Below are positions 8,675 through 52,956 of a DNA stretch of 64,000 nucleotides, piece by piece. The notes under the pieces are model-generated. The model was not told the origin of the DNA. It made no database searches and saw only the letters and a program-made list of their open reading frames with translations. A program made the translations under genes and the position numbers. Source of the DNA: Candidatus Nanopelagicales bacterium (GTDB lineage Bacteria; Actinomycetota; Actinomycetes; S36-B12; UBA5976); contig JALQVI010000001.1 in assembly GCA_023260395.1 (NCBI GenBank), positions 3,692 through 67,691 of the forward strand. The letters run 5' to 3'. Numbering within the stretch: position 1 is the stretch's first letter; each line of letters opens with the position of its first letter.

Positions 8675-9827
8675 CTGAGATCGCTTTCTGATAAATCGCA
8701 ATTGTTTCTTTTGCAATCCGATCCCAGCCGAATTCAGTTACAGCTCGTTCTCGGCCCGCTTGACCCATGCGCTGACCCAATGCTGGGTCTGTAACTACAA
8801 GACTAAGAGCAGCAGCAATCCCATTCTCAAACGATTCAGTGTCATTTTGGTCATAGTGAACTAATGTTCCTGTAACCCCGTCGACAACAACCTCAGGAAT
8901 GCCGCCGACGTCGGATGCAACGACAGGAACTTCGCAAGCCATTGCCTCGAGGTTGACGATGCCAAGCGGTTCATAAATCGAGGGGCAAGCAAATACCGCC
9001 GCATGTGAAAGCACCTGAACAAGTTCCGGTCGAGGTAATTGGTCTTTGAGCCAATGGATGCCCGTTCGCGTCGAAGAAAGTTTTGAGATTTGATCAGATA
9101 CTTCTTGGCCAAGTTCCGGTGTATCAGGCGAAGAGGCACACAAAACGAGAGCAACTTCAGGTGGCAATTGCTCAGCTGCGCGCAATAGATGCATGATGCC
9201 TTTTTGGCGAGTGATTCGACCAACAAATAGCACGTAAGGTCGTTGCGGATCGATTCCATGCTTCACGAGCGCCGAATTGTCGGAAACGCGCGAAATCGCA
9301 TCAGTATCGATGCCGTTGTAGACAACGTGCACCTTGGCGGGGTCTACTTCTGGGTAGCAATCCAAAATGTCGTTGCGCATTCCGTTGCTCACGGCGATGA
9401 TTGCATCCGCGGCCAGGTAAGCCGTCTTTTCGGCCCAACTTGAAATCCGATATCCGCCACCGAGTTGTTCGGCTTTCCACGGTCGACGAGGTTCAAGTGA
9501 GTGCGCGGTCAAAACGTGTGGGATGCCGTGGAGCATTGAACCGATGTGCCCAGCCATGTTGGCATACCAAGTGTGAGAGTGAACAACGTCTGCTTGGGCA
9601 AAATCTCGAACCATTTCAAGGTTAATTCCAAGGGTTTGGACTGCTGGATTGGCTGTTTCCAACTCAGTTGGCGTCTCGTAAGACTTGGCACCTTCTTTTG
9701 GTTCGCCAAAGGCGTGGACGTCGACATCCACCAGTTTGCGCAACTCTGCAACTAAGTGTTCAACATGAACGCCAGCACCGCCATAGATCTCGGGCGGCCA
9801 TTCTTTTGAAACAATTGAGATTTTCAC
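8646..9827 (-). CDS. glgA: glycogen synthase (GT4, actinobacterial GlgA type)
   Basis: 393 aa with N-terminus [26 protein letters not shown]-terminal GT-B motif is [29 protein letters not shown]. Divergent from glgC, as in mycobacteria. Confidence 0.88.
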
Positions 9828-11086: not shown

Positions 11087-11087
11087 T

Positions 11088-11867
11088 TTACCCGAAACGA
11101 CCCGAGATGTAATCTTCGGTTGCCTTTTCGTGTGGTGCTGAAAAGACCTGGTCAGTCGGGTTGATTTCAACGAGGCGGCCCGGTTCGCCTGTTGCAGCCA
11201 AGTTGAAGAATGCGGTCGATGAACTCACGCGCGCAGCTTGCTGCATGTTGTGAGTCACGATGACGATTGTGTATTCATTCTTAAGTTCGTGAATCAAGTC
11301 TTCGATTGCGATGGTTGAAATCGGGTCAAGTGCTGAACATGGTTCATCCATCAATAACACATCGGGCTGAACCGCAATCGCACGAGCGATACAGAGACGC
11401 TGTTGCTGACCACCCGAAAGTCCAGCACCTGGGCGATCAAGGCGGTCCTTAACTTCATTCCACAAGTTTGCGCCTTTGAGGGAACGCTCAACAATTTCAG
11501 CTAGTTCAGTCTTGGACTTGCGGCCAGTATCGAGCTTGATGCCGGCAAGAACGTTTTCTTGAATCGACATTGTTGGGAATGGGTTAGGCCGCTGGAACAC
11601 CATGCCGATTGTTCGACGAACGTTCACTGGATCAACGCCAGCACCGTAAATGTTTTCGCCATCAAGTTCAACGCTTCCTTCGATGCGTGCGCCTGGAATG
11701 ACTTCGTGCATACGGTTCAATGAACGAAGAACTGTTGACTTGCCGCAGCCCGATGGACCAATGAAGGCTGTGACGGAACGTGGCTCGATTGTGAGTGACA
11801 CGTCGGCCACGGCACGGAAGTTGCCATAGAACGCATTCAGATTATTGACGTCAATTCGCTTTGCCAT
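11088..11867 (-). CDS. pstB: phosphate ABC transporter ATP-binding protein
   Basis: Start at [15 protein letters not shown]. Walker A is GPSGCGKST, signature LSGGQQQRL, Walker [12 protein letters not shown]. The stop lies 1 nt from the convergent glgC stop. Confidence 0.95.
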
Positions 11868-11869
11868 GT

Positions 11870-28660: not shown

Positions 28661-29641
28661 ATGTCGCAGAGCACTTCATCGCCTACTGAAACGCATCACG
28701 TGAAGTTCAGCCACATCGCGTTGACGTTCGTAGCATCGGTAATCGTTAGCGCTCAATCCAGCGTGAACGCCGAGATGAATAAGCTGACAAACAACCCGCT
28801 TGTTACATCCTTGACAGTATTTGTTACGGGACTCGTAGTTTTGCTTGTCGTTATGGCGACCAAGAAATCAATTCGCACAGCATTCGCGTCTGTCCCAGGA
28901 CTCGTTCGAGCTGGTGAATTGAAATGGTGGTACTTGCTCGGTGGACTTTCCGGCGCAACATTCGTGGCTGTGCAAAGCAAACTGGTCGAAGCTACTGGCG
29001 TAGCGATTTTCACCGTTGCTGCTGTCGCTGGACAAACCTCGGGCGCATTGTTCGTGGACAAGTTCGGCATTGGTCCAGCCGGCAAACAAGCCATCACGTT
29101 AGGTCGCATCGCCTCCGCGGCACTTGGTGTCATCGGTGTGGTGATTTCAGTTTCTGGATCGTCGTCCAATAACGGAATTGCGATTGGTGGAATCATCGCA
29201 ACATTTGGTGCTGGACTTTTTGTTTCAACTCAGCCTGCGCTCAATGGCCAAGTCGCAATGAAGAGCGGCGAACCTGTTGCAGCGACAACGATCAACTTCA
29301 TTGTTGGTCTTTCGTTGATCACTGTTGTTTTTGTCGCAACCATGATTTTGGGTACCAGCGAATATTCGATGCCGCCTGCACCGTGGCAGAACCCACTCGT
29401 ATGGCTTGGTGGACCTGCAGGTGTGTTCTTTGTCTTGACCGCGGCCAAAATGGCTCGCGCACTTGGAGTTTTTGTTTTCACCTTGACCTCGGTGTTGGGA
29501 CAACTCAGCGGCGCAATTTTGTTGGACGTTCTTTTCCCGACCGCGGCCACGGACCTCTCGTGGCAGCTTTTCCTGGGCGTTGCGATTACTGGCTCGGCCG
29601 TTGTGATGGCGAGCCTGACGTCAAAACCTCGCTCAAAATAG
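28661..29641 (+). CDS. DMT-superfamily transporter with duplicated DUF606 (YdcZ-like) halves
   Basis: 326 aa, 10 TM. Repeated motifs AVAGQTSGALFVDKFG and SVLGQLSGAILLDVLF. Confidence 0.65.
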   Translation: MSQSTSSPTETHHVKFSHIALTFVASVIVSAQSSVNAEMNKLTNNPLVTSLTVFVTGLVVLLVVMATKKSIRTAFASVPGLVRAGELKWWYLLGGLSGATFVAVQSKLVEATGVAIFTVAAVAGQTSGALFVDKFGIGPAGKQAITLGRIASAALGVIGVVISVSGSSSNNGIAIGGIIATFGAGLFVSTQPALNGQVAMKSGEPVAATTINFIVGLSLITVVFVATMILGTSEYSMPPAPWQNPLVWLGGPAGVFFVLTAAKMARALGVFVFTLTSVLGQLSGAILLDVLFPTAATDLSWQLFLGVAITGSAVVMASLTSKPRSK

Positions 29642-29745
29642 GCTTTTTTCGAACAATCTGAGTCCACTGCACACCAAGATGCAAACGACTTGCAATTAGT
29701 CCTACGCGCCTTTTTTAATGCGTCCAACTCCATTACTTTTGCTAC

Positions 29746-29832
29746 ATGTCCCGCGGATCACTTCTGACTAAGCGCCGAGTCGTTGACTTTGGCCGCATGT
29801 CGTCGTCATCCATGTGTCGTCGTACTAACTAA
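29746..29832 (+). CDS. 28-codon sORF, candidate leader peptide of the downstream sulfur operon
   Basis: Translates to MSRGSLLTKRRVVDFGRMSSSSMCRRTN*. TACTTT (TANNNT) ends 6 nt before the ATG, so it looks leaderless. It lies 50 nt upstream of the DUF4395 start inside a 240-nt gap. No homology check was possible. Confidence 0.35.
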   Translation: MSRGSLLTKRRVVDFGRMSSSSMCRRTN

Positions 29833-29882
29833 TAGTGCAATCGGTGCGCCAGGCGCGGACCCCAGACGACAAAAGGAAATCC

Positions 29883-30308
29883 ATGAGCAAGCAAATTGAC
29901 CCACGTGGCCCACGCTTTGGCGCTGCCATTACAACTGTGGTGCTCGCTGTAATTTTGCTGACCATTCCAACGTCGATAGCAACTGTTTTGCTCGCAATTC
30001 AAACCGCGGTGTTTGGTATCGGTGCGTTCGTTGGATTACATGCTCATCCATACGGCTTGATCTACAAAAAGTTCGTTGCTTCTCGCTTGCAGCCACCAAC
30101 TGAACTCGAAGCCGTTGAGCCGCCAACATTCGCGCAGCTCGTTGGATTTCTTTTCGCAGTCACTGGACTCATTGCACTACTTGCTGGCGCGAACCTCGTT
30201 GCCACGATCGCCGTTGGCTTTGCACTTGCCGCCGCTTTCTTGAATGCCGCATTCGGCATTTGCTTGGGCTGCGAAATGTATGTCATCGGCAAGCGAATCT
30301 TTTCGTAA
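29883..30308 (+). CDS. DUF4395-family membrane protein
   Basis: ATG at 29883 follows AAAGGAAA. Sequence begins MSKQIDPRGPRFGAAITTVVL, has 4 TM segments and ends in FGICLGCEMY. Typical partner of actinobacterial rhodanese genes. Confidence 0.7.
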   Translation: MSKQIDPRGPRFGAAITTVVLAVILLTIPTSIATVLLAIQTAVFGIGAFVGLHAHPYGLIYKKFVASRLQPPTELEAVEPPTFAQLVGFLFAVTGLIALLAGANLVATIAVGFALAAAFLNAAFGICLGCEMYVIGKRIFS

Positions 30309-30347: not shown

Positions 30348-31196
30348 ATGAGCCGCAACGAAGTACTCGTTGACTCGGAATGGGCATTAGCTCACCTCGA
30401 TGACCCAAAGGTCGTTTTCGTTGAAGTTGACGAAGATGCAGATGCCTATAGCGTCAACCACATTCGTGGTGCAGTTGGTCTGAACTGGCGCGTTGATTTG
30501 CAGGACGGCCTTCGCCGCGACGTCATCAGCAAGGCTGGTCTTGAAAAGCTTCTTTCCGAAAAGGGCATCAGCAACGATGACACCATCGTTCTATACGGTG
30601 GCAACAACAACTGGTTTGCTGCATATGCCTATTGGTACCTCAAGCTTTACGGTCACCAGGATGTTCGTTTGCTCGATGGTGGTCGCAAGAAGTGGGAACT
30701 CGATGGACTAGAACTAGTCAGCGATGCAACCGTTCGTCCAGCAACAACATATGTTGCCAAGGAACAAGATCGTTCACTTCGCGCATTCCGCGATGACGTC
30801 GTTAACGCCATTGGTGTACAGAACCTCGTTGACGTTCGCTCCCCAGATGAGTACGCCGGCCGCCTATTGGCACCAGCACACTTGCCACAGGAAACTTCAC
30901 AGGTTCCGGGCCACATCCCAACCGCAGCGAGCATCCCATGGAGCAAGGCTGCTAACGAAGATGGCACCTTCAAGTCTGACGAAGAACTCAAGGCACTTTA
31001 CGAAGGCGCTGGCGTTGACCTGAACAAGGACACCATTGCGTACTGCCGTATCGGTGAGCGTTCATCACACTCATGGTTCGTCCTTCGCGAACTCTTGGGC
31101 ATCAAGAACGTACGCAACTACGACGGTTCATGGACCGAATATGGTTCATTGATCGGTGTTCCAGTTGCTCTCGGTGATGAGCCAGGCACAGCATGA
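30348..31196 (+). CDS. sseA: thiosulfate/3-mercaptopyruvate sulfurtransferase (two rhodanese domains)
   Basis: 282 aa. Active-site loop is YCRIGERSSHSWFVL, and NYDGSWTEYG lies near the C-terminus. Equivalent to mycobacterial CysA2/SseA. Confidence 0.88.
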   Translation: MSRNEVLVDSEWALAHLDDPKVVFVEVDEDADAYSVNHIRGAVGLNWRVDLQDGLRRDVISKAGLEKLLSEKGISNDDTIVLYGGNNNWFAAYAYWYLKLYGHQDVRLLDGGRKKWELDGLELVSDATVRPATTYVAKEQDRSLRAFRDDVVNAIGVQNLVDVRSPDEYAGRLLAPAHLPQETSQVPGHIPTAASIPWSKAANEDGTFKSDEELKALYEGAGVDLNKDTIAYCRIGERSSHSWFVLRELLGIKNVRNYDGSWTEYGSLIGVPVALGDEPGTA

Positions 31197-31495
31197 GTAG
31201 CTGTGGCGCAGTAGTCGGCGGTGTATCGCTGGACAACGTAGATGTAACAACTCAGGCTGTCATCCAGGGCGTTGTGACCAAAGGTGGCCAGCCAGCCAAC
31301 ATTGGCTACAACCGTCTTCATGACCGCAATGATGAGTTCGTCGCTGAAGTGCCACTGAACTCAAAGGGCGAATTCCGCTTCTTTGCCGGCCCTGGCGACT
31401 GGATTGTGGTCACGTTGGTGCCCGGTGGGGTAGTTCGCACTCAGGTCTCTGCCGAACTTGGCAAGATCGCGGACTTGGACATCTCGGTCGACTAG
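31193..31495 (+). CDS. DUF1416 protein (SseC-like)
   Basis: 100 aa. ATGA overlap with the rhodanese gene. GEFRFFAGPGDWIVVTL resembles mycobacterial SseC2. Confidence 0.75.
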   Translation: MSSCGAVVGGVSLDNVDVTTQAVIQGVVTKGGQPANIGYNRLHDRNDEFVAEVPLNSKGEFRFFAGPGDWIVVTLVPGGVVRTQVSAELGKIADLDISVD

Positions 31496-52040: not shown

Positions 52041-52739
52041 GTGACTCGACCTGACCTCAATAAGCAGCCTGAAGAAGTCGCGGCCATGTTTGACAAGGTC
52101 GCTGCAAAATACGACATCACCAATGACGTGTTGTCGATGGGACGTACTAAGTCCTGGCGAAAAGCCGTAGTTGCTGCTGTTGACCCCAAGCCAGGCGAGC
52201 GAATCTTGGATTTGGCCGCGGGAACCGGAACGAGCACCGTTCCATTCCACAAAATCGGCGCTGACGCCGTTGCCTGCGATTTCAGCCCCGGAATGATTGA
52301 AGTGGGTCGCAAGCAGTACCCATTTTTGACCTTTGTCCAGGGCGATGCGCTCAATTTACCCTTTAAAGACAACGAATTTGACGCTGTCACCATGTCATTT
52401 GGGCTGCGTAACGTTCATGACACGCTAAAGGCGCTTTCTGAGCTCTATCGGGTCACAAAACCCGGTGGCCGCATGGTTATTTGCGAATTTAGCCACCCAA
52501 CCTGGGCTCCATTTCGCAAGGTTTACATGGAATATCTGATGAAAGCCCTGCCTGCTGTGGCTACAAAGGTCTCTAGCGACCCCGAGGCTTACGTATATTT
52601 GGCCGATTCTATTCGCGAATGGCCTGATCAGGAGGCACTTTTGGCTCTGATTATGCAGGCTGGATGGGACGCCTGCGAGTGGCGCGATTTAACCGGTGGC
52701 ATTGTGGCCCTACATCGGGCTATAAAAGCTGAAAAGTAG
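52041..52739 (+). CDS. menG: demethylmenaquinone methyltransferase
   Basis: GTG at 52041 avoids overlap with the upstream gene (the ORF track starts at 51909). Motifs [23 protein letters not shown] motif ILDLAAGTG, and FGLRNV. Confidence 0.88.
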
Positions 52740-52790
52740 CATTTCGCACCCTGCAGTTACTTCCAGGGCTTTAGTAGACTGCAATCGCAT

Positions 52791-52808
52791 TAGTGAAAAC
52801 TTTCACAA
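52791..52808. promoter_or_regulatory. Rex (redox-sensing repressor) operator-like inverted repeat upstream of nuoA
   Basis: TAGTGAAAACTTTCACAA matches TTGTGAA-N4-TTCACAA at 13 of 14 specified positions. It lies 149 nt upstream of the nuoA ATG. Confidence 0.55.
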
Positions 52809-52956
52809 ATGCACAAAGCCCTGAATTTACAAGAGGTTTTGGGCTCTAGGATTGGTTTGCAGATCACCGCGGATCTAGCGCAGAAAATGCAACATCAAGC
52901 CGGCGCCTAAAAGAGGAAATTCTTTAACGGCAACTGGTTAGCGAGAGGTGGCACAC

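Follow-up and report, generated by a model that had tools for sequence, protein, structure and literature searches.

A divergent, unannotated Ms5788A-type leader ORF before the sulfurtransferase operon of a freshwater actinobacterium

The window, i.e. the whole stretch of 64,000 nucleotides analysed here, carries a 28-codon ORF (sORF; 29746 to 29832, plus strand, ATG start) encoding the peptide MSRGSLLTKRRVVDFGRMSSSSMCRRTN, within the gap that precedes a DUF4395-rhodanese-DUF1416 sulfurtransferase operon. Judged by its place and its peptide sequence, it is a genuine conserved leader ORF, orthologous to Ms5788A and to the family annotated as 'putative leader peptide'; it belongs to a known attenuator family, of which it is a divergent and so far unannotated variant, and does not represent a novel type of element. 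Most of our confidence, with a good deal of reserve, goes to the reading that it acts as a divergent Ms5788A-type leader, in which ribosome occupancy would control the masking of the Shine-Dalgarno (SD) sequence of the DUF4395 gene and the single Cys codon would be the slow step. The cysteine attenuator appears not to be peculiar to mycobacteria: the leader precedes the sulfurtransferase operon across Actinomycetota, streamlined freshwater lineages included.

The reference system, Ms5788A, is a leaderless sORF of 90 nt in M. smegmatis; it has eight C-terminal Cys codons, which base-pair with the region of the Ms5788 SD (bioRxiv 10.1101/834739), and it makes the Ms5788-cysA2-Ms5790 operon cysteine-responsive by translational attenuation (bioRxiv 10.1101/834739 = Mol Microbiol 2020, Canestrari et al. 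2020). In M. tuberculosis, the annotation now includes its orthologue, Rv0815A (PMC13096801). Like both of them, the window sORF is followed by genes for DUF4395, a cysA2-type rhodanese and DUF1416, shows a leaderless start geometry and the peptide core LTKRRxVD, and has a 3' end predicted to pair with the stretch just 5' of, and including, the SD sequence of the next gene. It differs from them by having one Cys codon versus 7-9 in mycobacteria, Gly at the first conserved Cys position (D+2), an extra residue between the core and the Cys, a pairing of the (GUC)n:GACGAC type versus the mycobacterial (UGY)n:ACAACA, and a spacer of 50 nt versus about 90-97 nt.

The leader ORF, its operon and its family

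The gap follows a gene for a DMT/YdcZ exporter and extends for 241 nt up to the DUF4395 gene. It had been described as unusually long in the initial annotation, and in a crude ORF call it is in fact in the top 8 of 52 gaps by size, the median intergenic gap of the window (G+C 51.7%) being 26 nt in the same type of call. The proposed order of the downstream genes was borne out by Pfam matches for all three, located on the plus strand: a DUF4395 membrane protein, the first regulated gene (29883-30308, ATG at 29883; PF14340, E = 1e-40), a tandem-rhodanese sulfurtransferase of the CysA2/SseA type (30348-31196; PF00581 in two stretches, E = 3e-32), and a DUF1416 protein of the SseC type (31193-31495; PF07210, E = 1.6e-28). 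The rhodanese is 68-76% identical to its actinobacterial orthologues. The leader motif has no second copy elsewhere in the window, and no tRNA genes were found in it. Searches against Rfam gave nothing at gathering score across the whole window, and a permissive search for cis-regulatory families in 29500-30000 gave only a noise match (E = 9). Gaps of 408-783 nt are present at 9260-9667, 11087-11869 and 52394-52947, according to the crude ORF call; they contain neither an Rfam family nor a tRNA gene.

Homology to the mycobacterial cysteine-responsive leaderless attenuators, suggested by the initial annotation, is supported by the presence of the same operon and by the best NCBIfam match of the peptide. 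The search of leader-peptide HMMs that had been proposed there returned, as the only NCBIfam match, NF042933 ('Ms5788A family Cys-rich leader peptide'; 18.4 bits, E = 0.0013, residues 4-18), well below the curated cut-off of 45 bits. Apart from the score, the sORF has the core of this family, LTKRRVVD, at codons 7-14 (29764-29787), within an ORF of the 25-35 codon range, and lies directly before the DUF4395, cysA2-type rhodanese and DUF1416 genes; in place of a Cys-rich C-terminal tract, it has a single Cys codon (29815-29817). The actinobacterial 'putative leader peptide' family, mentioned in the initial annotation, is NF042934 (class cis_reg_atten, cut-off 27 bits), which is matched by typical relatives. 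With the general form of this model, xLTKRRAVDxCRVxxxLCRxx, the window peptide has in common the core, a Cys fixed in place downstream of it, and a position before the rhodanese operon. It differs by having no reportable NF042934 score in its native form; when G16C and M18V are introduced by hand, the score rises to 20.9 bits, still below 27.

Typical family members match both models, NF042934 scores being 23-40 bits for those of Streptomyces, Micromonospora and Nocardioides. Sister freshwater peptides score 17-27 bits with NF042933, and the freshwater clade, window included, stays below the cut-offs of both NF042933 and NF042934 throughout. Freshwater leaders would therefore remain unannotated: current NCBIfam models miss them, and annotation pipelines omit them.

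Related loci were collected in three sets: 80 loci retrieved via the rhodanese protein, with one genome per species; 51 freshwater metagenome loci retrieved via the DUF4395 protein; and the closest relatives, found by exact-protein look-ups. The sORF is present at 124 of 132 related loci, and at least four of the 8 loci lacking it have almost no upstream sequence in the retrieved stretch. The family consensus is L-T-K-R-R-[AV]-V-D-x-[CG]-R-[VL]-x-x-x-[LM]-C-x-x-x-stop. Over 87 unique peptides, the residues of the core are found with the following counts: L 86, T 82, K 74, R 87, R 86, [AV] 83, V 83 and D 87.

Comparison of synonymous and non-synonymous changes in the upstream regions of relatives, also proposed in the initial annotation, established that the sORF is under coding selection, the frame being kept at the loci counted above. 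The sORF frame has a pooled pN/pS of 0.22, compared with about 1.6 for the two remaining forward frames. Variation is concentrated at third codon positions, with entropies of 0.49, 0.32 and 1.38 bits at positions 1, 2 and 3, respectively (12 core codons, 108 unique DNA versions), and the sORF frame has zero stop codons across the family test. Conservation at 124/132 loci, together with this codon-periodic variation, rules out a chance ORF; nucleotide-level constraint, which the mycobacterial authors had raised as another cause of the conserved non-Cys residues, is excluded by the codon analysis. The antisense frame which shares the wobble position has a pN/pS of 0.37, and an antisense ORF was ruled out by the stop codons found in 30 of 100 sequences.

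Two short ORFs overlap the sORF: one of 23 aa in antisense orientation (29742-29813, minus strand) and one of 38 aa in a different forward frame (29783-29899, plus strand). Both were rejected as conserved genes, on account of family stop codons and high pN/pS in those frames.

The window form of the peptide is itself maintained. Relatives whose DUF4395 proteins are 94% and 87% identical carry MSRGSLLTKRRVVDFGRMSSSSMCRRTN and a version ending in MCRHH; in these relatives the first 24 sORF codons vary only synonymously, and the promoter-proximal DNA and the spacer have diverged. Since close relatives keep the peptide, the one-Cys, Ser-rich form is maintained in a small subclade and is no sequencing oddity.

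Promoter geometry and upstream palindrome

The hexamer TACTTT (29734-29739, plus strand), a -10-like element of the TANNNT type, ends 6 nt before the ATG of the sORF, as the initial annotation had pointed out, and no SD sequence precedes this ATG. A generic sigma-70 scan of the leader found no full promoter; the -10-only geometry was therefore tested family-wide. At 108 of 120 unique loci, an in-frame ATG or GTG is preceded by a TANNNT hexamer whose end lies 6-8 nt away from it, against a background rate of 0.0025 per position, so that the leaderless geometry is conserved across the family. Transcription most likely begins at, or next to, the ATG of the sORF, which would then be translated without a leader. 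A terminator scan found no intrinsic terminator in the leader.

Further upstream, the window contains a palindrome, TGCAA-ACGAC-TTGCA (29680-29694), whose centre lies some 59 nt before the start of the sORF. The motif TGCRA-N5-TYGCA has a single occurrence in the window. Each of the 38 unique loci of the freshwater clade, window included, has it with its first base at -66 or -67 relative to the sORF start (palindrome-bearing loci are L081-L121, L130, L134 and L135, plus the window). At this distance, it is absent from all loci outside the freshwater clade, two of which have a match further upstream (-84 and -89). Among loci, the arms stay conserved and the centre changes, the pattern expected for a dimeric transcription-factor site, and the palindrome is probably a transcription-factor operator. 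Its constant distance would lend independent support to a fixed transcription start. A clade-specific candidate operator beside the promoter suggests that this sulfur-handling operon is under both transcriptional and translational control.

The ORF tail and its pairing with the Shine-Dalgarno region

Two Cys codons per peptide are the family mode (56 of 87 unique peptides); six peptides have one, and mycobacterial members, to which polycysteine is confined, have 7-9. A Cys is found at D+9 in 86/87 unique peptides, usually with the stop codon three codons after it; the sole exception is the window, where an extra Ser moves it to D+10. The window tail, MCRR, differs from the MCMC, MCCC and MCCS of sister clades by T-to-C changes at first codon positions and two one-codon insertions. 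The near-tandem duplication reported for this region exists as a 9-nt repeat, TGTCGTCGT, at 29798-29806 (copy 1) and 29815-29823 (copy 2) of the plus strand. Both copies are complementary to the sequence GACGACA, located beside the SD, and they are read in different frames: copy 1 is part of Met-Ser-Ser-Ser, while copy 2, conserved in loci L134-L138, supplies the Cys codon UGU (29815-29817) and two Arg codons. Short units repeated in tandem also make up other tails: mycobacteria have (TGY)n, and the main freshwater clade has ATGTGT-ATGTGC.

The complementarity between TGTCGTC (29815-29821) and GACGACA (29865-29871), the latter abutting the AAAGGA SD of the DUF4395 gene (29872-29877, 5 nt before the ATG at 29883), had been described as a weak interaction of 7 bp. 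The 7-bp pairing stands, and recurs in the closest relatives; its weakness does not, as the helix closes a predicted three-way junction in which the triplet UCC (29809-29811), i.e. the fourth Ser codon, also pairs with GGA of the SD. The pairing probability is 0.98 for UGUCGUC-GACGACA, formed by copy 2 of the repeat, and, in the free leader, 0.72 for UCC with GGA, which is found in MFE structures as well. The remaining two arms, found by local folds, are the hairpin H1 (29822-29838; GUACUA/UAGUGC), whose loop contains the stop codon UAA of the sORF, and the G+C-rich hairpin H2 (29843-29861).

The reliability of the structure was evaluated by using shuffled sequences. The local fold bounded by the last Ser codons and the start of DUF4395 (29806-29888, 83 nt) has an energy of -27 kcal/mol and a z-score of -2.9, none of 200 shuffles being as stable; the full-length leader is not more stable than its shuffles (z = -0.27). 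When the spacer is shuffled, 0.7% of the versions have a perfect 7-bp match to the complement of the sORF tail in the 10 nt next to the SD, and 4.7% have one at any place along the 39 nt of the spacer. The level of SD pairing predicted for the 3' window of the sORF is matched by 20 of 200 shuffles. As a positive control, the same tools paired the polyCys tracts of Mycolicibacterium with ACAACAGGAG, as published.

The junction is also predicted for loci L134, L135 and L137, with z-scores of -3.4, -2.7 and -2.2, respectively. In L135 and L137 the place of H2 is taken by a hairpin of different sequence, GGCCG...CGGCC, and the spacing between GACGACA and the SD is not constant across the three loci and the window. 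Conserved blocks of the spacer are AGUGCAA (3' strand of H1), GACGACA and the SD, the rest being diverged; GACGACA is kept as such a block in L134-L138, with different flanking spacer. In L135, where 7 nt separate GACGACA from GGA, the predicted SD pairing is low (0.11). The closing helix is invariant among the three lineages compared, so that it shows no covariation by which it could be confirmed. RNAalifold, run on a mixed freshwater alignment, gave no consensus structure, because clades use different anti-SD sequences and GACGACA was misaligned by MAFFT.

The effect of a translating ribosome was modelled by constraint folding. In the free leader, the SD triplet GGA is unpaired with a probability of 0.11; the value rises to 0.45 when the Cys codon occupies the A site of a ribosome, and is 0.25 when the ribosome is on the stop codon. 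In the last case, copy 1 of TGTCGTCGT pairs with GACGACA with a probability of 0.48.

A different anti-SD sequence is used in the main freshwater clade (L081-L121), where the stop codon and UUCC/UCCU pair with GGAAUU, and the probability of the SD pairing with the 3' window of the sORF is mostly 0.6-0.78. In the first 20-30 nt past the sORF stop of these loci, the anti-SD is followed by a hairpin, GCAGUC...GGCUGC, which is absent from the window subclade. This hairpin covaries, GCAGUC/GGCUGC being replaced by CGCAAC/GUUGCG in L100, and L113 has an unrelated 10-bp stem. In the predicted folds, masking of the SD by the 3' end of the sORF is kept between freshwater clades and the masking sequence differs. 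Taken by clade, the masking sequence is (UGY)n, UAAUUCC or (GUC)n, and the locus illustrates how a putative SD-masking helix is rebuilt from different short tandem repeats in each clade, the overall design being kept.

This design is not universal in the family, since the pairing statistic, which works for the freshwater clade, fails for Streptomyces and Micromonospora, with spacers of about 200 nt. For these two genera and Kitasatospora, pairing of the SD with the sORF tail is not predicted, and the read-out of the leader may be different. Streptomyces, Kitasatospora and Micromonospora carry the leader ORF directly before the rhodanese gene, without a DUF4395 gene and with a spacer of about 140-235 nt (L001-L080; e.g. 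2237-2293 in L022 and 2237-2296 in L005).

Proposed mechanism and alternatives

In the favoured model, the free RNA would pair UCC and UGUCGUC with GACGACA-AAA-GGA, closing the three-way junction and burying the SD of the DUF4395 gene. A ribosome on the last third of the sORF would melt the helix and expose the SD, so that a longer dwell would result in more translation of DUF4395, rhodanese and DUF1416. The likeliest cause of a long dwell would be the wait for Cys-tRNA at the single UGU; behind a terminating ribosome, the other copy of the UGUCGUC motif, copy 1, could pair again with GACGACA. Cysteine sensing through a single UGU is plausible, because the Cys it encodes is the one invariant residue in the tail of the family. 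In Ms5788A, four residual Cys codons suffice, and the paper is silent on one (bioRxiv 10.1101/834739). The extra Ser and the longer tail of the window count against the model, as they break spacings strictly kept in the rest of the family.

The trpL, hisL and pheL leaders likewise consist of a short upstream ORF with codons for pathway-related amino acids, where the position of the ribosome picks the RNA pairing. Unlike them, the window leader would control translation initiation by SD masking, and not an intrinsic terminator, its mRNA is probably leaderless, and its non-regulatory residues are strongly conserved.

The main conservative alternative, to which we would give only a minor chance, is that of a constitutive coupling device, or decayed sensor, where translation of the sORF still opens the SD helix and cysteine sensing has been lost. 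Two tail Cys codons would have been converted to Arg by TGY-to-CGY transitions, and the output of the operon would follow sORF translation and the upstream operator, not the charging of Cys-tRNA. This agrees with the MCRR or MCRHH tails found in place of the MCMC, MCCC and MCCS of sister clades, with the window peptide having the minimum number of Cys codons and being alone among the 87 peptides in breaking the D+9 spacing, and with the conserved candidate operator, which suggests that regulation can be transcriptional. However, the Cys that is retained is exactly the one invariant in the family, the peptide is under purifying selection within the subclade, and five other lineages also manage with one Cys.

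A codon-starvation model leaves three observations unexplained: the near-invariant non-Cys core, the fixed distance between core and Cys, and the two-Cys majority. All three fit a contribution of the nascent peptide. Given the two-Cys majority, the one-Cys window and the selection acting on the core at peptide level, the 'hungry polycysteine tract' model is arguably incomplete, and a role of the nascent peptide, one that can be tested, suggests itself. A sensor assisted in this way, where the core LTKRRxVD would act in the exit tunnel like an arrest peptide, and one Cys codon would be enough, is a tentative proposal that we hold to be rather improbable. The core would sensitise elongation at the fixed Cys codon to Cys-tRNA; alternatively, the signal could be free cysteine or a sulfur metabolite. 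Such a role is consistent with a core kept at peptide level across the phylum, synonymous variation being free, with a Cys placed at D+9 in nearly all peptides and a stop usually three codons on, and with the presence of only 2 Cys codons in most members. The mycobacterial study likewise lists interaction with the ribosome as one possible explanation of the conserved non-Cys residues (bioRxiv 10.1101/834739). Against it, the argument for the core is one of sequence conservation, the window subclade tolerates a one-residue change of spacing, and the core has no established likeness to a known arrest motif. Metabolite-sensing arrest peptides, such as TnaC and SpeFL, have conserved residues at a fixed distance from a stalling site near the C-terminus; the likeness of the window leader to them lies in the conservation pattern alone.

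Extended to the phylum, the same reasoning leads to a conjecture that we regard as doubtful: LTKRRxVD could be an exit-tunnel element, making one precisely placed Cys codon a sufficient sensor of cysteine or tRNA-Cys status. The mycobacterial polycysteine tract would then be a late elaboration, and the freshwater one-Cys forms would be the minimal working unit, coupled to an SD-masking helix of drifting sequence.

It is quite improbable that the 28-aa peptide is a stable small protein acting in trans, for instance on DUF4395, on the rhodanese or as a thiol or metal ligand, its upstream place being a mere matter of operon organisation. Purifying selection on the amino-acid sequence, and the C-x6-C spacing of the two Cys present in most members, would suit such a protein. 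In M. smegmatis, however, deletion or frameshift of the sORF gives cis effects explained by attenuation (bioRxiv 10.1101/834739), and leader peptides are considered likely to be unstable (PMC13096801). In addition, the freshwater clade has Gly for the first of the two Cys.

Serine sensing, or dual Ser/Cys sensing, through the charging of Ser-tRNA at four consecutive Ser codons, as contemplated in the initial annotation, is hardly credible: SSSS does lie directly before Met-Cys, its codons are identical in the three available lineages, and serine is the carbon precursor of cysteine, but the corresponding positions vary in the family (A/R/G/S, S/A/T, A/S/C/M; GSS, SSA or SSS in sister clades), three different Ser codons are used (TCG, TCG, TCA, TCC), and the run, being the in-frame reading of copy 1 of TGTCGTCGT, which complements GACGACA, is best explained at RNA level.

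A last observation concerns the residues following the core. Gly in place of Cys at D+2 is accompanied by Met or Leu in place of Val at D+4 (GRM/GRL versus CRV; 29791-29799 in the window), and this pattern is found in separate lineages, namely a Propionibacteriaceae MAG (L060), an unclassified Actinomycetota MAG (L055), one Streptomyces (L067) and the freshwater clade.
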